DNA of 40,000 bases from Methylovorus sp. MM2 (GCF_001648895.1 NZ_LXUF01000001.1:1059726-1099725); one strand, 5' to 3'. Counted from the stretch's first letter, positions 17,946 to 28,342 are shown. Notes: generated from the letters alone by a model not told the origin. Numbers and translations are program-made.

Positions 17946-18683
17946 CTATGGCGTATTTTTGTGCAGCTTGGTTGACGTATGTTTCTTGCGCATGCGGATA
18001 TTGACCATCTCAACCAGTACCGAAAATGCCATTGCAAAATAGATATAACCCTTCGGCACATGTACATCCAACCCTTCGGCAATTAGCGTAAAGCCGACTA
18101 ACATGAGAAATGAAAGAGCCAATATCTTGATGGTGGGGTTGGCATCGACAAAGTCACCAATTGATTTTGCTGCCAGCAGCATCACGCCCACTGCAATGAT
18201 AATGGCAATCGCCATGATAGAAACATGATCGGCAAGCCCCACTGCAGTGATGACTGAGTCTAGTGAGAATACGATATCCAGCAACCCAATCTGTACCAAT
18301 ACCATGCCCATGGTGGTAGCAGCGGTGGGGGTTTCTGATTCCTCCGCACCTTCAAGACTATTGTGAATCTCATGGGTAGCTTTTGCCAGCAAGAATAAGC
18401 CGCCGCCGATCAGGATGATGTCTCGCCCTGAAATGCCCTGATTAAACACAGTAAACCAAGATTCAGTCAGCCCCATTACCCATGAAATAGAGAATAGTAA
18501 AGCTAAGCGTGCGAACATCGCCAACCCTAGTCCGGCTCTGCGTGCAAAGGCACGCTGCTTTTCTGGCAGGCGACCAACTAAGATCGAAATGAAAATGATG
18601 TTATCGATACCAAGCACAATCTCAAGTGCAGTTAATGTACCTAGTGCAATCCAAGCCTCAGGGCTTGCGAACCATTCAAACAT
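17946..18683 (-). CDS. TerC-family integral membrane protein
   Basis: 245 aa, multi-pass. N-terminus WIALGTLTALEIVLGIDNIIFISIL and second repeat LDIVFSLDSVITAVG (the duplicated TerC DN/DS motif). Confidence 0.85.
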   Translation of the reverse strand: MFEWFASPEAWIALGTLTALEIVLGIDNIIFISILVGRLPEKQRAFARRAGLGLAMFARLALLFSISWVMGLTESWFTVFNQGISGRDIILIGGGLFLLAKATHEIHNSLEGAEESETPTAATTMGMVLVQIGLLDIVFSLDSVITAVGLADHVSIMAIAIIIAVGVMLLAAKSIGDFVDANPTIKILALSFLMLVGFTLIAEGLDVHVPKGYIYFAMAFSVLVEMVNIRMRKKHTSTKLHKNTP

Positions 18684-18905
18684 CGTGTCTCCAATGAGGG
18701 TGATTTAAAAGAGGCTAATTTATTATAGGTTGGTGCGGAATAGGTGCTGTTTGGTTACTGCTAACGCATTCCTCCGCAAGCTGTATGGTAAACCTCTTTA
18801 GGAGAGGTTTCCAATCTCTTATGTATGTGTGCTTATTGCATCAACGGGTTTTATCTGCGCTTCCAATCAGTGGCTCACTTTTGCGTTGATCTGGGTCGCT
18901 CTCAC

Positions 18906-19008
18906 ATTAAACCGAGCTGCTTTAGCAGCGATTTGAATGTCGACACTCCTTGAGGTTGCAGCGGCCATCTCGGCGGGGAATATCCTTGCGGTCTGTGATG
19001 AGTTAGGC
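18906..19008 (-). repeat. degenerate terminal attC of cassette 13
   Basis: tgatgaGTTAGGC at 18995-19008 matches the conserved end of the other attCs. attaaaccgagctgctttagcagcgatttgaatg at 18906-18939 resembles the other half. The two halves are separated by about 55 bp of unrelated sequence, and the distal core (attaaac) is imperfect. Confidence 0.35.
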
Positions 19009-19015
19009 CGTAAAC

Positions 19016-19360
19016 CTATTGGTACCATTCCGGCTTCCTTGCTTTCTTGCAGAATTGCCGTGCCGCTAATTTGTTTTTTGGTTCAATCTCTAATTCCAGC
19101 GCATTTAGTTTTGCAAGAATGTTTTCTTGGTTCTTATATTTGTGTTTGAGTTTTGCTAGCTTTGCATCAGTTCCTGGGCATGCTTGGCAAATTGACCAGT
19201 TAATATCGGCTTGCCTTTCTTCATCATAACCATCCTCACCTCGCCAGTGATCGCATGATTCGCGCAGCTTTAAGAAGTTTGAGACATCCCTCGGTAATGC
19301 ATCGGCTGCTAAGGCAGAGACGCAAACAAAAAGCAGGGTAAATAAACAAAAAAATCTCAT
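19016..19360 (-). CDS. cassette 13 ORF: small secreted Cys-containing protein, unknown function
   Basis: I take the start at 19360 (MRFFCLFTLLFVCVSALAADA, a signal peptide). The track start at 19390 lies inside attC. 114 aa with several Cys (SCDHW, SICQACPG, FCKK). Confidence 0.6.
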   Translation of the reverse strand: MRFFCLFTLLFVCVSALAADALPRDVSNFLKLRESCDHWRGEDGYDEERQADINWSICQACPGTDAKLAKLKHKYKNQENILAKLNALELEIEPKNKLAARQFCKKARKPEWYQ

Positions 19361-19363
19361 ATG

Positions 19364-19426
19364 GCCTAACGTTTGAGTGAAGGGGCACAATACTTTAGCG
19401 CGTCCCGCTTGAATGATGGGTTAGGC
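19364..19426 (-). repeat. attC of cassette 12 (aberrant, 63 bp)
   Basis: gcctaac...gttaggc cores are present, but the central stem is disrupted (ggggcacaatactttagcgcg). Confidence 0.75.
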
Positions 19427-19795
19427 AACATAGCTAATTTGCTCCAAAGTAATATATTTTTCTTCACCAACACCGGTAACGATTAACTCGATTAATACAC
19501 TAATCTCTTCGTTTATAGCCGTGACACACTCTACCAATGCATAAAGACCTGTGTCGTTAGATTTGAAGTATTTAACTTGAATTGATGTTGATTTTCGACT
19601 TGATGATTTTTCAGCTTCTGAAAGGCACTCTTCAAAATCTTGTTGAATTGCTAAAACTACATCTCGCCCAAATGCGAGGGCGTATCCAAAACGTTCAGCG
19701 AGTAATGAGAAGTTCTTGTTAGCAACCAAAGCAACAACCTCCGCCCCAAAACCCGAAAGGGTATTTTCATCTGTTTGTGCGGACGAAATTCTCAT
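19421..19795 (-). CDS. cassette 12 ORF: small soluble protein, unknown function
   Basis: 124 aa with no hydrophobic segments. The stop TAA lies inside the attC core (GCCTAAC). The ATG is 3 nt after the upstream GTTAGGC core. Confidence 0.6.
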   Translation of the reverse strand: MRISSAQTDENTLSGFGAEVVALVANKNFSLLAERFGYALAFGRDVVLAIQQDFEECLSEAEKSSSRKSTSIQVKYFKSNDTGLYALVECVTAINEEISVLIELIVTGVGEEKYITLEQISYVA

Positions 19796-19798
19796 ATT

Positions 19799-19858
19799 GC
19801 CTAACGTTTGACATAAGGGGCGCGCTTTAGCGCGTCCCGCTTGATGGATGGGTTAGGA
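19799..19858 (-). repeat. attC of cassette 11 (60 bp)
   Basis: gcctaacgtttgacataaggggcgcgctttagcgcgtcccgcttgatggatgggttagga. Confidence 0.85.
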
Positions 19859-20116
19859 AGCATTAGAAAGAGAAGCTAACCCAGAGAGCAAAATACCAAG
19901 CAACAAAAGTATAAGAGCTACTTGTGATGCACGAAGCCAGCAGTTTTTAATTTCGACTTTTGGAACACCCTCGAAATAAGCATCTTTATTTTCGGTGATG
20001 CTTAGACCATAGAATGAAAATAGAGCTAAAACTAATGTGCCTGAAACTTGCAGAGCTGTGGCTAACAAAGTGATGCAAAACATATGGCTTTTCACAAACT
20101 CGAATAACCCGCACAT
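19853..20116 (-). CDS. cassette 11 ORF: 87-aa two-TM membrane protein, unknown function
   Basis: Two long hydrophobic stretches (FCITLLATALQVSGTLVLALFSFYGL and VALILLLLGILLSGLASL). The stop lies inside the attC core. Confidence 0.55.
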   Translation of the reverse strand: MCGLFEFVKSHMFCITLLATALQVSGTLVLALFSFYGLSITENKDAYFEGVPKVEIKNCWLRASQVALILLLLGILLSGLASLSNAS

Positions 20117-20123
20117 ATTGTGT

Positions 20124-20181
20124 TCCTAACGTTTGAATTAAGGGGCGCCGTTAGGCGTCCCGCTTGAATGATGGGTTAGGC
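20124..20181 (-). repeat. attC of cassette 10 (58-bp subtype)
   Basis: tcctaacgtttgaattaaggggcgccgttaggcgtcccgcttgaatgatgggttaggc. Confidence 0.85.
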
Positions 20182-20476
20182 TTATTTTTTTAGGTAGAGA
20201 AATTGCATAGAGTAATAAACCAATGGTTCCAATAAATTTAGCTATTAGAGGAGCTAGACCGAATAAAGGCGGATAACTGACAGTGCGAAAGTTTATTGCA
20301 AGTTGGAACATGATAAGCGGAGAAATAGTAGCTACTAAAGCTCCAAAGAAAAACATAGCGGTGGGTATGGTTCTTGAGCGCCAATAGAGAATGCCTGCGC
20401 CACATAAGAGAACATATTCCACAGTGTGACTTATGAGAAGCATTAAGTAGTTCATTATAGTTATCAAAATGATCAT
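20138..20476 (-). CDS. cassette 10 ORF: small multi-pass membrane protein; the C-terminal 13 aa are encoded by attC
   Basis: 112 aa and hydrophobic throughout. The frame skips the TAA in the attC core and ends ...LTHHSSGTPNGAP at a TAA near the distal core. Confidence 0.55.
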   Translation of the reverse strand: MIILITIMNYLMLLISHTVEYVLLCGAGILYWRSRTIPTAMFFFGALVATISPLIMFQLAINFRTVSYPPLFGLAPLIAKFIGTIGLLLYAISLPKKISLTHHSSGTPNGAP

Positions 20477-20486
20477 AATTTTTAAA

Positions 20487-20546
20487 GCCTAACGTTTGAG
20501 GTAAGAGGCGCGCGCAAGCGCGTTCTGCTTGACCGAGGGGTTAGCC
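20487..20546 (-). repeat. attC of cassette 9 (60 bp, divergent)
   Basis: gcctaacgtttgaggtaagaggcgcgcgcaagcgcgttctgcttgaccgaggggttagcc. Confidence 0.8.
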
Positions 20547-20552
20547 ATTTTT

Positions 20553-21047
20553 TTATTTAAAAAGTACATGCAGCTCATAACCTTTTCCCGTAGGCCAATT
20601 GTCTCGAGTAATTTCGATAGTTGATTTTCCAAGTTTAGCCTGGATTGGTTTGCCAGATTTAATTGCGGTAGAAATTGAAGAGGGCAATTTCTCTCCAGTA
20701 ATTTTCTTGCTCAAGACCTCTGATGAGTTGATAAGCTCGGAATAAGCAGAAGAAGTCTCTGATTTATTATTTATGTTTAATACTAATTTAGCTTGAGTAG
20801 CTAAACTACTTTCGCCTTCTACATAATATGCTAGGTTGTTTGCCATAGGAAAACCCGTACCAATTTCTTTATATCGACTACTGCAGCTAAATTGGTTTTC
20901 ATATAGATTTTTCCAGCCTCGTGTAGCAAGCCCCACCTCTTTTAAAAATGAGCACACTTTGATTGGAGAGGTTTCTACAAGAGCAGCATTTGCAGTGGCA
21001 ACCATGAATGAAGTTAGAGTGATTAGTAAGGTTATAAAACTACGCAT
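20553..21047 (-). CDS. cassette 9 ORF: secreted protein, unknown function
   Basis: 164 aa with signal peptide MRSFITLLITLTSFMVATANA. It is the only cassette with a clear SD (caggaa) ahead of the ATG. Confidence 0.65.
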   Translation of the reverse strand: MRSFITLLITLTSFMVATANAALVETSPIKVCSFLKEVGLATRGWKNLYENQFSCSSRYKEIGTGFPMANNLAYYVEGESSLATQAKLVLNINNKSETSSAYSELINSSEVLSKKITGEKLPSSISTAIKSGKPIQAKLGKSTIEITRDNWPTGKGYELHVLFK

Positions 21048-21062
21048 TGTGGTTCCTGAAAT

Positions 21063-21122
21063 GGCTAACGTTTGAATTAAGGGGCGCGCTTTAGCGCGTC
21101 CCGCTTGAATGATGGGTTAGGG
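21063..21122 (-). repeat. attC of cassette 8 (60 bp)
   Basis: ggctaacgtttgaattaaggggcgcgctttagcgcgtcccgcttgaatgatgggttaggg. Confidence 0.85.
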
Positions 21123-21131
21123 AACATAACC

Positions 21132-21461
21132 TTACCGCCACTCATGAATAGATGGAATTGGCCCGAAAGTTTTTGCCAGTACATAAAATGCGAGCAAGAA
21201 CAGGGCTGCCAAAAAGACTAGGCCTACAAAAAAGTAAAGCATATCAATTGCAAAATGTTTCGCGCTAAGTCGCACAGCACTTACAAACCCTTTTTGCTTT
21301 TTGACTTCTGATTCATAAGAGAGAGAATCAGTTTTTGGGAAACTAATTATATTTAATGAAAGCAAACGTAGAGCAAAGCGACCAATGTCACTCACCCATT
21401 CTAGAAGAACAAAATAGAGAGCTCGATCAATAGTTCGAGACTGCATTTTTCTCGTTTCCAT
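21132..21461 (-). CDS. cassette 8 ORF: small membrane protein, unknown function
   Basis: 109 aa. C-terminal hydrophobic helix MLYFFVGLVFLAALFLLAFYVLA and an earlier amphipathic/hydrophobic segment. Confidence 0.55.
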   Translation of the reverse strand: METRKMQSRTIDRALYFVLLEWVSDIGRFALRLLSLNIISFPKTDSLSYESEVKKQKGFVSAVRLSAKHFAIDMLYFFVGLVFLAALFLLAFYVLAKTFGPIPSIHEWR

Positions 21462-21471
21462 GCTTATTATT

Positions 21472-21531
21472 CCCTAACGTTTGAATTAAGGGGCTGGCTT
21501 TAGCCAGTCCCGCTTGAATGATGGGTTAGCC
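21472..21531 (-). repeat. attC of cassette 7 (60 bp)
   Basis: ccctaacgtttgaattaaggggctggctttagccagtcccgcttgaatgatgggttagcc. Confidence 0.85.
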
Positions 21532-22026
21532 AGCATGCCGAGCCTTGAGCAAAGCACGCAGACCAAGTATAGCCAAAGCAGCCAAGGCCGAGAATACACA
21601 AAACAGATGTAACTCTCTGAGCGGGACAAGCTGATAAAGGGCGTTTGTTTCACTGAACGGTGAAAGTGGGACGATATCAGAGTGCATGACACTATCTAGC
21701 ACGATATGAGAATAGCTACCTGCTGCTGCACCTAACCAAATGGGTATTGGCTTTAAGCTTTGCCAATGAAATAAATTAGGTAACTTTAAACGGGAGGCCA
21801 GCTTTAGGGAGAGCATGAAAATAAGGGCTGTAAGCACCATGATGATGGTAGCGCCAACATAGGTATGAAAGAACCGATGCAATGGATATTGGTGAGTAAC
21901 TATGAAATATAGCGGCTCAATATCAATGAGTATATTAGCTGAACAGAAAGCTAGGAAACTGACATGCTTCGGTGCAACCGCATGAAGTGCAGCGCCAGGG
22001 CCAAAATGAAAAGGGGTAAATGGCAT
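21526..22026 (-). CDS. cassette 7 ORF: multi-pass membrane protein, possibly a DUF4184-like membrane metal-dependent hydrolase
   Basis: I take the start at 22026 (MPFTPFHFGPGAALHAV...). The track start at 22056 lies in the neighbouring attC. His-rich conserved-looking positions (FHFGP, THQYPLHRFFHTY, SYSHIVLDSVMHSD) sit between TM helices. The family call is from memory only. Confidence 0.55.
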   Translation of the reverse strand: MPFTPFHFGPGAALHAVAPKHVSFLAFCSANILIDIEPLYFIVTHQYPLHRFFHTYVGATIIMVLTALIFMLSLKLASRLKLPNLFHWQSLKPIPIWLGAAAGSYSHIVLDSVMHSDIVPLSPFSETNALYQLVPLRELHLFCVFSALAALAILGLRALLKARHAG

Positions 22027-22040
22027 CGTTGGTTTTAGAG

Positions 22041-22100
22041 GGCTAACGTTTGACATAAGGGGCGCGCTTTAGCGCGTCCCGCTTGATGGAATGGTTAGAG
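22041..22100 (-). repeat. attC of cassette 6 (60 bp)
   Basis: ggctaacgtttgacataaggggcgcgctttagcgcgtcccgcttgatggaatggttagag. Confidence 0.85.
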
Positions 22101-22103
22101 GTT

Positions 22104-22610
22104 TTAAGCCGCATGATTTGTAAAAGGCTTGGTAATGAACTTGGCAATTGAATGAGCCCTAAATAAGAAGGCTAAAGCAATAATTAACTCTATCAATATA
22201 AAGCTGACATCTGCTTTGCCTTCGGCACCTAAAGTATCAAGGATTGAGGCAGAACCAGCTTTTAAGCTCGTTTGAAACAGGTACGATACTAAATCGGGTG
22301 CAGCATCGACGACTTTCCATAACCCTAGCATTGCAATGCCTACGGTTGCAACTTCATCTGGACGTGTATTGAGCCGATTTTCGAAGGTGGTTTTTGGTAC
22401 TAGTTTATGAGAGATAACCATCGGGAAAAACCAAGAAAGCACTGCAACTGATAAATATATAGTACCAATAACTAACGAGGCCGAGGCTTTGTCATCCATT
22501 CCATGGGACCACAATGCATTGGGCATTCCTGAAAGGTAAGGAATTGAAAATAAAGCCATCGTTATTGAAAACATACGTATAGCCAAACCGACGAATTGCT
22601 GCGGAGTCAT
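22104..22610 (-). CDS. cassette 6 ORF: multi-pass membrane protein, unknown function
   Basis: I take the start at 22610 (MTPQQFVGLAIRMF...). It is preceded by GTTAGAGGTGAAAAT, so the attC core plus flank forms a GAGGTGA SD. 168 aa with about 4 hydrophobic helices. Confidence 0.6.
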   Translation of the reverse strand: MTPQQFVGLAIRMFSITMALFSIPYLSGMPNALWSHGMDDKASASLVIGTIYLSVAVLSWFFPMVISHKLVPKTTFENRLNTRPDEVATVGIAMLGLWKVVDAAPDLVSYLFQTSLKAGSASILDTLGAEGKADVSFILIELIIALAFLFRAHSIAKFITKPFTNHAA

Positions 22611-22618
22611 ATTTTCAC

Positions 22619-22678
22619 CTCTAACGTTTGAATTAAGGGGCACGCTTTAGCGTGTCCTGCTTGAATGATGGGTTGGGG
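22619..22678 (-). repeat. attC of cassette 5 (60 bp)
   Basis: ctctaacgtttgaattaaggggcacgctttagcgtgtcctgcttgaatgatgggttgggg. Confidence 0.85.
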
Positions 22679-22732
22679 CGCTCATAGATTCTGGCTGAGT
22701 TTCGAGTTTGCAGTTGTTCTAAAGACGCGAAG

Positions 22733-23101
22733 CTACCGATGCTTCTTATGGCCAAAAGAAAACAACGCAACGAAACCTGAGAGCCAATAAGTGATTATGC
22801 TAAAGGCAAGCAACATTACACGAGACGGATCATTGCTTGCGTGGAATCCCCACTGGATTAAGAAGCCGACAAGAATCGATGTCCACGCGCAGCTAAGTGC
22901 AATAGAACGTTCAGATCCGCGAAGTACCGCAACGAACACTGTAAGAAGGGGGGCAGCCGATACGACGGCGAAGACCACTACCGCAGATAAAAAGCCGTGA
23001 CCACCTTCCGGCAGATTTGATGCCACAAGTATCTCTCCTGCCATAAGTACAAGCAAAAGTACCGCTGTGGTCTTGGTCAACACGTTCGTATCAGTAGACA
23101 T
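22733..23101 (-). CDS. cassette 5 ORF: four-TM membrane protein, unknown function
   Basis: 122 aa and almost entirely hydrophobic, with a basic C-terminus (GHKKHR). A 54-nt spacer separates the stop from attC. Confidence 0.55.
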   Translation of the reverse strand: MSTDTNVLTKTTAVLLLVLMAGEILVASNLPEGGHGFLSAVVVFAVVSAAPLLTVFVAVLRGSERSIALSCAWTSILVGFLIQWGFHASNDPSRVMLLAFSIITYWLSGFVALFSFGHKKHR

Positions 23102-23106
23102 GTGCG

Positions 23107-23166
23107 CCCCAACGTTTGAATTAAGGGGCGTGCTTTAGCACGTCCCGCTTGAATGATGGGTTAGAC
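23107..23166 (-). repeat. attC of cassette 4 (60 bp)
   Basis: ccccaacgtttgaattaaggggcgtgctttagcacgtcccgcttgaatgatgggttagac. Confidence 0.85.
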
Positions 23167-23175
23167 GACATAATT

Positions 23176-23520
23176 TTACAATGGTGGTGAAGGTGGAAAC
23201 CCACGATGTAGAAACCAATCGGCGGCGAAGAAAATAAGTGGCGCTACAATAATTGAGATGGTGCATGCAACAAAACGGAATAATTTAGTCTGTTTTTGAC
23301 CGCCACGGTAAAACAACCAGAAGAAAAACGTACTAAGCCATATAACAAGAGCCACATAAGGCAGTACACCACTTAAAACAACCCATTGCTCTGTATAGTT
23401 ACTAACACCACCACCAACATTAAGCCAATTGTACATAAAGGCGCTGTATGCACTGCAATACGCAGAGAGAGCTGCAGCAATGTTGGTATAAAATAACAAC
23501 TTAAATGCTCTATTCTTCAT
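23176..23520 (-). CDS. cassette 4 ORF: three/four-TM membrane protein, unknown function
   Basis: 114 aa with aromatic-rich hydrophobic helices (VALVIWLSTFFFWLFY, ISIIVAPLIFFAADWF). Confidence 0.55.
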   Translation of the reverse strand: MKNRAFKLLFYTNIAAALSAYCSAYSAFMYNWLNVGGGVSNYTEQWVVLSGVLPYVALVIWLSTFFFWLFYRGGQKQTKLFRFVACTISIIVAPLIFFAADWFLHRGFPPSPPL

Positions 23521-23524
23521 GGCG

Positions 23525-23582
23525 TTCTAACGTTTGAATTAAGGGGCGCCGCTAGGCGTCCCGCTTGAATGATGGGTTAGAG
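23525..23582 (-). repeat. attC of cassette 3 (58-bp subtype)
   Basis: ttctaacgtttgaattaaggggcgccgctaggcgtcccgcttgaatgatgggttagag. Confidence 0.85.
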
Positions 23583-23867
23583 CTCATGTTTAACTCTCCA
23601 CTCTTCAGTCCAGGAGTGAATTTTGACGTGATGCACTTGCTTCGAGTTATCAGTACGTTCACTTTTTAGCATGGAGGTAGTTAATTCATTGCTGCCCCAA
23701 TCTTGAGTAAAAAGATGATTATGGTCGCACACGCCTTTCTCAAGCTTTTGCAGCATATTGGAAAGGGACTTTTGTAAAAGCTCAATTCCCTCTTTATTTG
23801 CATGAATATTGACCGTATCACCTTCTGGTGATGTAACAAAACTTAAAAGAGGAGCAACTTTAGTCAT
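23577..23867 (-). CDS. cassette 3 ORF: 96-aa soluble protein, possibly immunity-protein-like (Imm32-type)
   Basis: No hydrophobic segment. The central CDHNHLFTQDWGSNEL reminds me of the H.HL..W motif of small Imm32-type immunity proteins. This is recollection only and is not verified. Confidence 0.5.
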   Translation of the reverse strand: MTKVAPLLSFVTSPEGDTVNIHANKEGIELLQKSLSNMLQKLEKGVCDHNHLFTQDWGSNELTTSMLKSERTDNSKQVHHVKIHSWTEEWRVKHEL

Positions 23868-23874
23868 TGGTGAG

Positions 23875-23932
23875 CTCTAACGTTTGAATTAAGGGGCGCC
23901 GTTAGGCGTCCCACTTGAATGATGGGTTAGGC
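23875..23932 (-). repeat. attC of cassette 2 (58-bp subtype)
   Basis: ctctaacgtttgaattaaggggcgccgttaggcgtcccacttgaatgatgggttaggc. Confidence 0.85.
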
Positions 23933-24329
23933 CATAACTTTGCTCAGCCATGTTTGCTGAATTTACGACGAGCCACCCAGCGTGCGCCCAAAGTGCGATA
24001 GAGATAAAAACCAAAATACCGCCAGAGAAAAATGCCGTAAAGAGCGACGCAAGATTTAAAGCGAGAACTGCGTTACCCAGACTAGGTTTGCTACTGGATG
24101 CTAGCTTGTAGGCAAGAACAGTTAGCAAGATGCCGGGGTATATGCCAAGAGTAAGTACGGTGAGAAGTAAGCCCATGCTGGGAGTTGGGAAGTTTGCTTT
24201 GTATAGTTTGCCAATTGAACCAGCTTTGAAAACCACCCAGATGGCACCATACAACCCTAAAGTAATACCATTGGCAAAGTAAAACTTTCCACGACTGTGG
24301 TTGATATTGCTGAGTAAACCATCGCTCAT
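23889..24329 (-). CDS. cassette 2 ORF: multi-pass membrane protein with repeated GxY-type helices (weakly DUF4234-like); the C-terminal tail is encoded by attC
   Basis: I take the start at 24329 (MSDGLLSN...). The track start at 24350 lies in the neighbouring attC. Contains GITLGLYGAIWV and LTLGIYPGILL. It ends with the same attC-encoded LTHHSSGTPNGAP as cassette 10. Confidence 0.55.
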   Translation of the reverse strand: MSDGLLSNINHSRGKFYFANGITLGLYGAIWVVFKAGSIGKLYKANFPTPSMGLLLTVLTLGIYPGILLTVLAYKLASSSKPSLGNAVLALNLASLFTAFFSGGILVFISIALWAHAGWLVVNSANMAEQSYGLTHHSSGTPNGAP

Positions 24330-24334
24330 TTTCT

Positions 24335-24394
24335 GCCTAACGTTTGACATAAGGGGCTTGCGATAGCAAGTCCCGCTTGATGGACGGGTTAGAG
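24335..24394 (-). repeat. attC of cassette 1 (60 bp)
   Basis: gcctaacgtttgacataaggggcttgcgatagcaagtcccgcttgatggacgggttagag. Confidence 0.85.
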
Positions 24395-24404
24395 CTCACG
24401 CCGT

Positions 24405-24818
24405 TTAGACCCATTTGGCAATTCCATAGACGATGGTTCCTATGCCAAAGGCAAGCTGCATACCAAAGAGAACACGGAACGCCACTGTATAGCGGATGAC
24501 GCCCGTGTGGCGCTTGGCGTCAAGCGCAAAGAGGCGGGAGTGCTGTGGAAATTGCTTTTCGTATTCCTTGAGCCCTGGTACGGCAAGCTTAAGAAGACTC
24601 TGGCTTCGTACATCGATTACAGCGAACACTACCGAGAGTACGACAACAAAGCCGCCGATGAGGGCGAATACGGCACCATGCGAAGACTTCTCTACGGCGG
24701 CAAATACGCCACCATTAGCGAACACCGAAAAGACAACGAAGAAGTTAAACGCTTTCAGTCGCTGCTCGGCGTTGAACGCAAAATGTTTCCAGAGATAATC
24801 GAATTCTTCGGTGTTCAT
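24405..24818 (-). CDS. cassette 1 ORF (attI-proximal): 137-aa membrane protein, unknown function
   Basis: N-terminal soluble segment MNTEEFDYLWKHFAFNAEQRLKAFNFF runs into hydrophobic helices (FVVFSVFANGGVFAAV, AVFALIGGFVVVLSVVFAVI, VLFGMQLAFGIGTIVYGIA). The ATG is 7 nt after the attI crossover core. Confidence 0.6.
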   Translation of the reverse strand: MNTEEFDYLWKHFAFNAEQRLKAFNFFVVFSVFANGGVFAAVEKSSHGAVFALIGGFVVVLSVVFAVIDVRSQSLLKLAVPGLKEYEKQFPQHSRLFALDAKRHTGVIRYTVAFRVLFGMQLAFGIGTIVYGIAKWV

Positions 24819-24843
24819 ATTTGGGCTCTAACGTAAAGTAGAC

Positions 24844-24872
24844 ATCCTATTTGACGCTTTATTTTGCGTCAA
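24844..24872 (-). promoter_or_regulatory. candidate cassette promoter (Pc-like) inside attI
   Basis: Minus strand reads TTGACG-(17 nt)-TAGGAT, with the -35 at 24872..24867 and the -10 at 24849..24844, firing toward the attI crossover and cassette 1. This is a sequence match only. The -35 lies within the inverted repeat. Confidence 0.35.
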
Positions 24873-24880
24873 ATAGTGAA

Positions 24881-24912
24881 TTGTCTTGTAATATTTAAAT
24901 GAAGAGTATAAT
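24881..24912 (+). promoter_or_regulatory. candidate intI promoter (Pint)
   Basis: Perfect TATAAT at 24907-24912, 46 nt upstream of the intI ATG. Only weak -35 options exist (ttgtct at 24881, ttgtaa at 24886). Confidence 0.4.
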
Positions 24913-24957
24913 GAAATCATGTGATTAAATATTTTTAGTACATCCTAAATTTAAAAT

Positions 24958-25947
24958 ATGAATACGTCAAATATAGAGCCGCCTAAGCTGTTAGAGCAAG
25001 TGCGTGGAAAAATCCGGCTTAAGCATTACAGCATACGCACTGAGCAAGCTTATGTTGATTGGATTAAACGATACATTTTGCATTTTGACAAGCGGCACCC
25101 AAAAGACTTGGGGGCGGCAGAAGTGGAGCAGTTTTTAACGCACTTGGCGGTGCATGGAAAAGTCGCGGCATCCACACAAAATCAGGCAAAAAGTGCGCTG
25201 CTATTCTTGTATAAAGAGATTTTAGCGCTTGAGCTGCCTTGGTTGGATGATGTGGAACGCGCAAAAACGCCCAAGCGCTTGCCCGTGGTGCTTAGCCAAG
25301 CTGAAGTCCAGCAAATACTCTCGCATTTGGAAGGCACGCATCACCTGATTGTAAGTTTGCTTTATGGCACAGGCATGCGGATTATGGAGGCGTTGCGTTT
25401 GCGCGTGAAAGACATTGATTTTGCCCGCAAAGAGATTTTGATACGTGATGGCAAGGGTTATAAAGACCGCATTACGATGTTGCCGCTAAGTTTGATCGCG
25501 CCGCTGCAAGCGCATATCAAGCGCGTAAAAACTGTGCATGAAAAAGATTTGAATGATGGCTATGGTGCGGTCTATATGCCGTTTGCGCTGAACAAAAAAT
25601 ATCCATATGCAGCACGGGATTGGTCTTGGCAATACATATTTCCTTCTGGCAAGTTATCGGTTGATCCGCGTGCTACAGAAGAAGCGCCTGAAAGCCGACG
25701 CCACCATATTCAAGATCAGGCGATTCAACGTGCAGTGCGGCAGGCAGTGATGGACGCAGGCTTAACCAAACCCGCCACGCCGCATACGTTTCGTCATAGT
25801 TTTGCTACGCATTTGCTCGAAAGCGGCTATGATATTCGCACTGTGCAAGAGTTACTTGGGCATAGTGATGTGGCAACCACCATGATTTATACGCATGTAT
25901 TGAATAAAGGTGGTCGCGGGGTTGCCAGCCCATTGGATAATCTATGA
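24958..25947 (+). CDS. intI: integron integrase (tyrosine recombinase, IntI family)
   Basis: 329 aa. Catalytic residues in context ([18 protein letters not shown]; [12 protein letters not shown]; [13 protein letters not shown]). Carries the IntI-specific insertion between patches ([29 protein letters not shown]....RRHH). The C-terminus [14 protein letters not shown] is typical of IntI proteins. Confidence 0.92.
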
Positions 25948-27700: not shown

Positions 27701-28342
27701 ATGAGTGGTGTGATTAATGTGATGTTAGTAGATGACCATGCCGTGGTGCGTATGGGATTCAAGATGTTGCTCGAGTCTGCGCCTGACATCAAGGTGGTGG
27801 CCGAAGCTGAAAATGGCGAGCAAGGGGTGAAGATGTACATGGAGCATCACCCCGATGTGGTCGTGATGGATATCACCATGCCAGGAATCGGCGGTTTGGA
27901 GGCAATCGAACGCATCATGGCGAAAGATAGTCATGCGCGCCTGCTCGTACTTTCAGCGCATGAAGATTCCGTACACCCTAAACGCGTGTTGAATGCAGGG
28001 GCACTCGGCTATCTGACTAAGCGCAGTGCAGCTGAAGAGTTAATAAAAGCAATTCGTACTGTCGCAGGCAGAAAACGATATCTTGAGGCAAGCATTGCCC
28101 AGCAAATGGCGATTCAGCAACTCTCCGGTGAGACGAATCCGGTAGATGTGCTGTCTGATCGTGAGTTTGAGGTGTTTATGGCCTTGGCAAAAGGCAAGAC
28201 TACCAATGATATTGCTGAGACACTGAGTCTATCGCCGCGCACTGTGGGTACGCACTTGTATAACATCAAACAGAAACTCAATGCCAATAATTCTGCTGAG
28301 ATCGCACTTATTGCGATGCGGTCAGGCCTGATAGACCCTTAG
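27701..28342 (+). CDS. NarL/FixJ (LuxR C-terminal HTH) family response regulator, UvrY/GacA-like
   Basis: Receiver domain (VMLVDDHAVVRMG, VVVMDITMPGIGG) and LuxR HTH (LSDREFEVFMALAKGKTTNDIAETLSLSPRTVGTHLYNIKQKL). Confidence 0.9.
   Translation: MSGVINVMLVDDHAVVRMGFKMLLESAPDIKVVAEAENGEQGVKMYMEHHPDVVVMDITMPGIGGLEAIERIMAKDSHARLLVLSAHEDSVHPKRVLNAGALGYLTKRSAAEELIKAIRTVAGRKRYLEASIAQQMAIQQLSGETNPVDVLSDREFEVFMALAKGKTTNDIAETLSLSPRTVGTHLYNIKQKLNANNSAEIALIAMRSGLIDP

Follow-up and report, generated by a model that had tools for sequence, protein, structure and literature searches.

The question raised by this locus is whether a row of short repeats beside a tyrosine recombinase gene makes up a complete integron and, if so, of which kind. 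The locus lies within a 40,000-nucleotide stretch of the Methylovorus sp. MM2 genome (GCF_001648895.1, NZ_LXUF01000001.1:1059726-1099725; hereafter the window, with positions counted from its first nucleotide), in which an earlier reading made from the sequence alone (the original prediction) had placed a sedentary-type chromosomal integron with 13 cassettes and near-identical attC recombination sites between positions 18906 and 25947. We conclude with high confidence that the region from 18.9 to 25.9 kb is a complete chromosomal integron of this soil methylotroph, a member of the Methylophilaceae. None of the three outcomes that the original prediction had named as refuting it, each checked directly or by approximation, was observed. 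The locus combines an integrase carrying the IntI-specific domain, structured attC sites, an attI site at the junction of conserved and variable sequence, and discrete mobile cassettes. Of the 13 cassettes predicted, 12 are intact and the 13th, bounded only by a degenerate attC remnant, is a fossil at the end of the array; the distal limit of the integron cannot be placed to the base. Two features define its integrase end:

24958..25947, plus strand: intI, intact gene for an integron integrase of 329 aa (TIGR02249 match and VchIntIA alignment)
24826..24877, minus strand: attI region, with the core GTTAGAG at 24832-24826 followed toward intI by GTAAAGTAGACATCCTATTTGACGC-N8-GCGTCAAATAG

The integrase was found where it had been predicted, as a 329-aa open reading frame (ORF) that contains the IntI-specific peptide quoted at the time, and a check against integrase profile models bore the assignment out. 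The protein matches the NCBIfam model TIGR02249 ('integron integrase') with 491.8 bits (cutoff 265) in one stretch covering model positions 1-315 of 315. With the XerC and XerD models, the match breaks into two separate stretches and stays far below the cutoffs, as is expected if IntI bears an insertion relative to Xer. The best match among solved structures is VchIntIA (PDB 2A3V, E = 1.6e-89, residues 12-328); this alignment is unbroken through the IntI-specific segment, and the RHRY catalytic motifs are aligned. With the class-1-type (IntI1) equivalog NF011946, the score of 385.5 does not reach the cutoff of 435. Relatives of the integrase were taken as the best 80 loci of one genome scan. 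The nearest of them track host taxonomy; IntI identity is 78% in Methylobacillus arboreus, ~65% in Nitrosomonas eutropha and 61% in Lampropedia puyangensis. An exact protein look-up of IntI returned no record, though the cassette proteins had records, and the deposited annotation presumably gives intI another start codon or omits it.

The repeats provide the second line of evidence. The pattern AACGTTTGA-N30-50-GGTTRG occurs 12 times in a scan of the whole window, always on the plus strand between 19368 and 24392, where 100 dinucleotide-preserving shuffles give an expected count of 0.00. Trimmed core to core, the 12 repeats measure 58-63 nt, as had been claimed, and the high similarity attributed to them corresponds to a mean column identity of 84%, with 31 of 63 columns invariant. 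Because the cassette ORFs lie on the minus strand, the plus strand is the bottom, recombinogenic strand of each attC site. As folded single-stranded DNA, this strand pairs CTAAC with GTTAG in an R box, followed by a spacer left unpaired, an L box and an apical stem rich in GC with a 4-nt loop. Bulged T, G and G residues occur on the 3' arm only; these bulges (T40, G44 and G48) are invariant or nearly so across the 12 sites. The repeats thus fit the arrangement of unpaired central spacer (UCS), extrahelical bases (EHBs) and variable terminal structure (VTS) described for attC bottom strands (PMC8946536). In the 12-site alignment, 96.8% of cells are paired, compared with 36-46% when the partners are slid by one to three columns. 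Compensatory changes affect six pairs (18 cells), and the covariation score was reached in 0 of 500 shuffles. Rfam 15 yields no match in the window at the gathering threshold, and no described RNA family accounts for the repeats.

A further regularity ties the repeats to the units that they delimit. In an array, the sequence 5' of the AAC core of a given attC is part of the next cassette. Within one cassette, the three variable bases preceding TAAC of attC(k-1) are complementary to the three following GTTAG of attC(k) at 35 of 39 positions, whereas the two ends of the same attC agree at 12 of 36 only (both register counts were made by hand). The rare CCAAC at the start of cassette 5 is paired by GTTGG in that cassette's own attC. 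We read this cassette-wise complementarity as the footprint of units that circularize and integrate by crossover at G|TT.

A covariance model, R1, was built from the 12 trimmed attC sites. Run on the window with filters off, it returns exactly 12 sites, which are its own training sites and score 65.6-88.4 bits; the next best match scores 15.6. The model was then applied to 83 other loci (1.03 Mb), 80 of which had been chosen solely for encoding a relative of IntI, and gave 137 matches at E<=0.01. In the loci that could be oriented by intI (the 80 fetched by IntI and the sister-strain locus described below), each of the 135 matches is on the strand that encodes intI, and 134 are located upstream of that gene. 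They are spread over 41 of the IntI-fetched loci plus the sister locus, in taxa ranging from Methylophilaceae to Gallionella, Nitrosomonas and Comamonadaceae. The repeats of the window therefore share sequence and structure with the attC sites of many independent integrons. The sole match downstream of intI (L056, 3849-3908, 28.5 bits) is likely to be either spurious or a stray site. We also note that in the Lampropedia puyangensis locus the R1 matches stand ~245 bp apart in two runs of three (L067, 7749-8292 and 9145-9688), a spacing that implies unusually short or tandemly duplicated cassettes.

The crossover-to-crossover spacings given in the original prediction (491, 460, 350, 418, 488, 578, 569, 409, 576, 363, 325 and 435 bp) follow exactly from the coordinates, and each interval does contain a single main minus-strand ORF, of 87-179 aa. 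The intact, promoterless cassettes, in order from attI and each with the R1 score of its attC, are:

24341..24831, minus strand: cassette 1, 491 bp; ORF 24405-24818, 137 aa, membrane protein; attC1 24335-24394, 80.6 bits
23881..24340, minus strand: cassette 2, 460 bp; ORF 23889-24350, membrane protein; attC2 23875-23932, 76.9 bits
23531..23880, minus strand: cassette 3, 350 bp; ORF 23577-23867, 96 aa, Imm32; attC3 23525-23582, 77.8 bits
23113..23530, minus strand: cassette 4, 418 bp; ORF 23176-23520, 114 aa, hydrophobic; attC4 23107-23166, 84.2 bits
22625..23112, minus strand: cassette 5, 488 bp; ORF 22733-23101, 122 aa, hydrophobic; attC5 22619-22678, 81.4 bits
22047..22624, minus strand: cassette 6, 578 bp; ORF 22104-22643, membrane protein; attC6 22041-22100, 82.8 bits
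21478..22046, minus strand: cassette 7, 569 bp; ORF 21526-22056, membrane protein; attC7 21472-21531, 84.6 bits
21069..21477, minus strand: cassette 8, 409 bp; ORF 21132-21461, 109 aa, singleton cluster; attC8 21063-21122, 88.4 bits
20493..21068, minus strand: cassette 9, 576 bp; ORF 20553-21047, 164 aa; attC9 20487-20546, 76.2 bits
20130..20492, minus strand: cassette 10, 363 bp; ORF 20138-20476, 112 aa, membrane protein with the tail LTHHSSGTPNGAP; attC10 20124-20181, 79.9 bits
19805..20129, minus strand: cassette 11, 325 bp; ORF 19853-20116, 87 aa; attC11 19799-19858, 88.3 bits
19370..19804, minus strand: cassette 12, 435 bp; ORF 19421-19795, 124 aa, soluble, no family; attC12 19364-19426, 65.6 bits

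The cassette proteins correspond to A7981_05050 to A7981_05105 of the deposited MM2 annotation, in which nearly all are labeled 'hypothetical protein', and most form singleton clusters among ~15 billion proteins. Cassette 3 matches a family above its cutoff (PF15566, 30.4 bits, cutoff 27; NCBI name 'Imm32 family immunity protein'). Weaker resemblances are to 8xMP for cassette 1 (PF24838, 25.8 bits, below cutoff), to DUF4234 for cassette 2, to YdjM for cassette 7 (PF04307, 22.8, cutoff 29) and to DUF6030 for cassette 9, whose product has a signal-peptide-like N-terminus. Cassette 4 belongs to no family and forms a singleton cluster, and the cassette 6 protein, which probably starts at MTPQQ, has no Pfam match. 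A Pfam-based survey of the cassettes found no resistance genes among their products, and the best result with the PADLOC anti-phage models was a 14.9-bit noise match.

The sites themselves vary in minor ways. The R' core of attC4 is the variant CCAAC; the R'' core of attC5, GTTGG, fits the CCAAC at the 5' end of cassette 5 and extends to a 10-nt complementarity (GTTGGGGCGC). At 63 nt, attC12 has the weakest stem and folds no better than shuffled sequence. The variant GTTTGACATAAGG, present in attC1, attC6 and attC11 (24342-24350, 22048-22056 and 19806-19814), creates a top-strand ATG that precedes the crossover by 8 nt. The reading frames of cassettes 2 and 7 include this ATG, which accounts for the 'MSNV...' N-terminal extensions of their ORF calls; for cassette 2, a start at an internal Met is more likely. 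Some cassette ORFs lack a stop codon of their own and read into the attC, so that their products end in identical tails: LTHHSSGTPNGAP is encoded by attC in cassettes 2 and 10 (23889-23930 and 20138-20180; by attC2 in the former). Cassettes c3, c6 and c9 of the sister strain end in an attC-encoded tail in another frame, NPSFKRD....

Comparison of strains shows what the array does over time. It had been proposed that the synteny of the locus be compared in related genomes, with an identical block conserved unchanged across distant relatives counting against the prediction. The integron occupies the same locus in MM2, in GCA_041287775.1 (the sister strain, L081), in Logan SRR9694538 and in the metagenome JGI 3300023211. 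The sister strain has the same order (TerC, array, intI-kinase-regulator), with TerC and the regulator 100% identical, IntI 98% identical, and 11 R1-scoring attC sites plus a remnant. When the 13 cassette proteins of the window were compared by BLASTP with the 12 of the sister strain, one real match emerged, the terminal cassette at 93%; the rest is noise. A third variant, from JGI 3300023211, carries a BrnT/CopG toxin-antitoxin cassette beside the same terminal cassette, and an Imm27 cassette is also present in sister strains. The platform is chromosomally fixed, while what it carries is replaced rapidly from strain to strain.

The MM2 cassettes come from a pool common to other Methylophilaceae arrays. 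A copy of cassette 1 (cas1; 99% identical) lies between two attC sites in the array L091, and a copy of cassette 7 (cas7; 96% identical), which elsewhere begins at an internal Met, is flanked by attC sites in L087-L090. The cas7 copy also occurs in Methylotenera sp. 1P/1. The arrays that hold these copies have attC sites of the same family (50-87 bits by R1) at other loci, with other neighbors and with no intI within 10 kb. Such arrays of the same attC family without intI were seen in L091 (9934-12722), L087 (9927-11991), L088-L090, L093 and L094; those bearing cas1 or cas7 look like attC clusters without an integron integrase (CALINs) in the sense of Cury et al. 2016 (PMC4889954). The L091 array has a YchJ-like gene on one side and an OmpR-type kinase-regulator pair on the other. 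In the window, members of these families are directly adjacent (6779/6781), and this point is likely the empty counterpart of the L091 array site, as judged by family match rather than orthology.

The one cassette common to the strains is the degenerate one at the far end of the array:

18930..19369, minus strand: fossil cassette 13; ORF 19016-19363, 115 aa, signal peptide; attC remnant ~18930-19012

The ORF of cassette 13 is followed by GTGATGAGTTAGGCC at ~18998-19012. The remnant retains the R'' core GTTAGGCC, which is complementary to the cassette's own 5' end, so that the R''/L'' half-site survives. The CTAAC core of R' is lost, and none is found to the left of the half-site. The remnant gives neither an attC fold nor an R1 match, and a full 13th attC was rejected on these grounds; the core that had been proposed at 18906 (CATTAAAC) falls in a strain-variable stretch, likewise devoid of an attC fold or an R1 match. 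Cassette 13, the remnant and the stretch up to TerC show 93% mean column identity among the window, L081, L085 and L086. The cassette 13 protein is 93% identical to its L081 counterpart, though TerC and the regulator are 100% identical. In the window, the remnant also has a private 13-nt insertion (CGAGCTGCTTTAG) and clustered substitutions (18890-18945). The divergence of cassette 13 and the insertion CGAGCTGCTTTAG are consistent with relaxed constraint on the remnant.

At the opposite end, the lone crossover core reported for the minus strand was confirmed, as CTCTAAC at 24826-24832. When the attI-intI spacers of the window, L081, L082, L003, L001 and L008 are aligned, similarity starts exactly at CTAAC|G. 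Sequence to the left is cassette-specific; to the right it is conserved in the window, L081, L003, L001 and L008 through GTAAAGTAG.CATCCTATTTGACGC-N8-GCGTCAAATAG. This onset maps the attI junction to 24832|24833, ~125 bp upstream of intI. The spacer holds several elements of possible regulatory significance:

24844..24872, minus strand: candidate cassette promoter (Pc), TTGACG-17 nt-TAGGAT (promoter scan and conservation)
24847..24876, no strand assigned: inverted repeat CTATTTGACGC / GCGTCAAATAG, perfect over 11 bp, its arms 8 nt apart; overlaps the -35 element and spacer of the candidate Pc
24907..24912, plus strand: TATAAT, candidate -10 element of an integrase promoter (Pint), 45 nt upstream of the intI ATG, with no convincing -35
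24942..24970, minus strand: second TTGACG-17-TAGGAT, 98 bp away from the first copy and overlapping the start codon of intI

Promoter function and regulation are parts of the picture that we infer. TTGAYG-N17-TAGGAT recurs at the equivalent place in L001, L003, L004, L008, L011, L012 and L081, which makes TTGACG-N17-TAGGAT a candidate Pc; its predicted start, near 24837, lies a few nucleotides upstream of the attI crossover and would read into the cassettes. The second copy is found only in the window, L081/L082 and L002, and may serve as another promoter directed at the cassettes or as one antisense to intI. TATAAT is conserved in the window, L081, L082 and L001 and appears as TATAGT in L003; the promoter scan did not call it. 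The 11-bp palindrome inside attI has fold z-scores of -4.3 and -5.5 and is kept across genera, with a compensatory GATGG/CCATC in L008. It could be an IntI-binding or operator site, or it may form a hairpin.

Taken together, these parts would operate as follows. IntI would bind the folded bottom strand of attC (the plus strand of the window) by recognizing its R and L boxes, the spacer left unpaired and the bulged bases, and would cut the AAC core between A and C. Recombination between two attC sites would excise a cassette, and recombination between attC and attI at 24831|24832 would reinsert it. The promoter adjoining attI (candidate, 24872-24844) would then express the attI-proximal cassettes. 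These steps follow the established integron model.

The integron lies on a 1.6-Mb chromosomal contig, with housekeeping genes as neighbors:

17946..18683, minus strand: TerC-family membrane protein (PF03741), the distal chromosomal boundary; 100% identical in L084, L085 and L086
25944..27668, plus strand: sensor histidine kinase with LapD_MoxY_N, HAMP, PAS, HisKA_3 and HATPase_c domains
27701..28342, plus strand: NarL/UvrY-type response regulator; 100% identical in L081, L082 and L083

The stop codon of intI and the ATG of the kinase gene overlap by 4 nt (ctATGAgt, 25944-25947). The same overlap is kept in the sister strains, and the overlap and gene order are found in M. arboreus (L003, 10987-10990; kinase 73% identical) and in another member of the Methylophilaceae (L008, 1303-1306). 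In a Methylotenera metagenome-assembled genome (MAG; L001), intI and the kinase gene are separated by 36 nt and the kinase lacks the PAS domain, and other genes lie downstream of intI in the Methylophilaceae integrons L002, L004 and L006. This linkage suggests, from gene arrangement, that intI, kinase and regulator are co-transcribed. On the other side, a search for the TerC motif gave no match in the other loci. The TerC leader (18684-18880) is ~99% conserved in four strains, and the TerC protein weakly resembles the riboswitch-associated YkoY/YjbE families. Neither yybP-ykoY nor any other Rfam family matches the leader at the gathering threshold; an undescribed leader element is possible.

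The genome announcement of MM2 describes a grassland-soil isolate with a 2.42-Mb genome of 46% GC and does not mention the integron (PMC6256518). We note that the strain was deposited as Methylovorus, yet has 46% GC, and that its nearest IntI kin are from Methylotenera and Methylophilales MAGs (80-82% identity); its true place within the Methylophilaceae may differ from the genus label.

The orientation of the array relative to replication is suggested by GC skew, which is ~+0.12 for plus-strand genes and ~0 to +0.01 for minus-strand genes of the window. The plus strand would accordingly be leading, and the attC bottom strands (array 19364-24394) would lie on the lagging-strand template, a suggestion drawn from the skew of 40 kb only, which cannot settle orientation. 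Loot et al. (2017) found the lagging-template orientation in 5 of 30 sedentary chromosomal integrons (SCIs), all of them small arrays (<=22 cassettes; the median was 15), and associated this orientation with folding and excision that proceed more readily (PMC5371416). With 12-13 cassettes and fast turnover, the MM2 array fits this small, lagging-template class.

Whether the integron is rightly called sedentary depends on the definition. The parts, their architecture and conservation, the variability among strains and the sharing of cassettes are direct observations. The chromosomal context, fixed locus in the available conspecific sequences, homogeneous attC sites and agreement of IntI kinship with host taxonomy favor the term. 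Cury et al. (2016) require only IntI and at least one attC for a complete integron, but more than 19 attC sites and presence in 100% of a species' genomes for a sedentary one (PMC4889954). Several points weigh against our conclusion. The 12 scoring attC sites and one remnant fall short of the >19 criterion. Within the window, R1 scores its own training sites, which is circular; its independent matches are those elsewhere. The conspecific-level set consists of three or four sequences, found via the flanking genes. Linkage to the kinase gene extends beyond the window species only to L001, L003 and L008, and the flanks vary by lineage. The promoter scan count is unremarkable (3, with 1.5 +/- 1.4 expected), and 24833-24957 contains no LexA box (CTGT-N8-ACAG, <=1 mismatch). 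Finally, present-day activity of the integrase is something that we infer. A sedentary, strain-variable integron is nevertheless the supported description, though a small one: the platform is fixed and its content replaced, rather than a block kept unchanged across relatives.

Could the integron instead be a fossil, with an IntI that is no longer active or expressed and with strain differences that are old or arose by homologous recombination of whole arrays through the flanks? The missing LexA box is relevant here, since loss of LexA control correlates with integrase inactivation; it is also the norm in soil and freshwater chromosomal integrons (Cambray et al. 2011, PMC3108266), a pattern that the MM2 locus fits. 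The gene has no obvious Shine-Dalgarno sequence or -35 element, the terminal cassette has already fossilized, and, as to mechanism, the whole array could be swapped through TerC and intI flanks that are identical. On the other side, the integrase is full-length, lacks none of its motifs and agrees at 98% between strains. In each of the 12 attC sites, the cores and the pairing are almost perfectly preserved, and the cassette-wise R''/R' complementarity is intact. Flanks with 98-100% protein identity alongside total cassette replacement point to recent turnover, and it is single cassettes, not blocks, that recur in other arrays with different neighbors. We consider a fossil integron unlikely.

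A second proposal concerns control rather than activity. It holds that, in this Methylophilaceae clade without a LexA box, intI is the first gene of a conserved intI-kinase-regulator operon, its expression being co-regulated with or controlled by the pair, with the attI palindrome as operator. If true, a MoxY/LapD-type kinase and a NarL-type regulator would constitute the 'alternative transcription factor' called for by Cambray et al. 2011, replacing SOS. We found no evidence tying the kinase or regulator to control of the integron, and the attI and Pint elements are common to integrons without the pair. The palindrome as an operator specific to the downstream two-component system is unsupported, because both it and TTGAYG-N17-TAGGAT are also present in the kinase-less integrons L004, L011 and L012, and both are decayed in L006. 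The full proposal is accordingly quite doubtful.

That the locus is a mobile integron, or a recent island carried by a transposon, plasmid or integrative and conjugative element and found in the chromosome by chance, we regard as very improbable. The array is AT-richer than its surroundings, as first judged by eye (GC 39-45% in the array, 47-51% in the flanks), the neighborhood of intI varies between Methylophilaceae lineages, and many chromosomally located integrons class as mobile (Cury et al. 2016, PMC4889954). However, the absence of transposition genes noted at the outset held up: Pfam data for 1-8 kb of the window and the flanking genes contain no transposase or other mobility gene, and no transposase, relaxase or other mobility gene occurs in the surveyed flanks, which cover ~18 kb on the side of TerC and 12 kb past intI. 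The insertion locus is the same in three conspecific sequence sets, and both M. arboreus and a further member of the Methylophilaceae keep the intI-kinase overlap. IntI kin follow host taxonomy, the attC sites are homogeneous, and resistance cassettes are lacking. With NF011946 below its cutoff, no mobility genes and a chromosomal contig, the element is not a class 1-5 mobile integron. The remaining idea, that the repeats are a generic intergenic family (palindromes of the repetitive extragenic or interspersed mosaic type, REP/BIME, or terminators) coincidentally near a tyrosine recombinase, has virtually nothing left to it: short GC-rich palindromes between genes in convergent or tandem arrangement are common in bacteria and the apical stem resembles a terminator hairpin, but these repeats occur nowhere else in the window, have a single orientation, RYYYAAC/GTTRRRY cores, cassette-wise complementarity and asymmetric one-arm bulges, and R1 matches in 41 other loci lie almost exclusively upstream of intI.

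What the complete, strain-variable integron of MM2 offers is chiefly a well-resolved, small and intact example from a soil betaproteobacterium, with near-isogenic natural variants in public data. It is a natural system for cassette turnover rates outside Vibrio, for LexA-independent control of intI, and for the proposed link of orientation relative to replication with array size and excision (Loot et al. 2017). Integrons of this kind are routinely detected by existing software. What goes beyond routine annotation is that strains otherwise near-identical differ in almost all of their cassettes, that the terminal cassette is a fossil, that some cassettes are shared with integrase-less arrays, that the attI/Pc palindrome is conserved and that intI overlaps the kinase gene. 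The locus also contributes some dozen cassettes whose function is unknown, most of them for small membrane or secreted proteins, and one Imm32 immunity protein. It changes no concept.

Among known systems, the closest are the integrons of Methylobacillus flagellatus KT, characterized in 2008 (Nemergut et al., PMC2426708), and Nitrosomonas europaea (cited in PMC3108266). They belong to the same family or order, intI diverges from an array of short to medium length, the cassettes are mostly hypothetical, and they fall in the soil/freshwater clade, whose members have as a rule lost the LexA box. MM2 differs from the M. flagellatus KT type in host species and cassette set; the KT sequence was not among the best 80 loci of the genome scan. 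As far as we have found, a strain-to-strain comparison and a fixed terminal cassette have not been described for the Methylophilaceae.

The Vibrio cholerae superintegron shares the sedentary platform, the homogeneous, lineage-specific attC sites, cassettes of mostly unknown function, and toxin-antitoxin or immunity cassettes in the pool (Imm32 in MM2; Imm27 and BrnT/CopG in its sister strains), and the MM2 IntI can be aligned with VchIntIA over its full length. The earlier likening of the array to those of V. cholerae repeats (VCRs) therefore stands for attC homogeneity and fails for size, as MM2 has 12-13 cassettes rather than ~180 and attC sites of 58-63 nt rather than ~120-nt VCRs. The V. 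cholerae system further differs from MM2 in that the latter has no LexA box, and the Vibrio SCIs all have their bottom strands on the leading-strand template (PMC5371416), unlike the lagging-strand template suggested for MM2 by GC skew only.

Class 1 mobile resistance integrons have in common with MM2 an intI gene, an attI site, a Pc-type promoter (a candidate in MM2), attC cassettes and the core G|TTRRRY. In MM2, neither a transposon nor a plasmid carries the element, the attC sites are homogeneous where those of class 1 are heterogeneous, there are no resistance cassettes, the integrase falls below the NF011946 cutoff, and the candidate Pc lies in attI rather than inside intI. Related genomes contain CALIN-like arrays (Cury et al. 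2016, PMC4889954) of the same attC family, some even holding cas1 or cas7, and intI is absent from the 10 kb around them, whereas MM2 has an intact adjacent intI and attI and is thus a complete integron. Set beside these systems, the MM2 integron is a clean but ordinary example of a well-known type of element rather than a new system.

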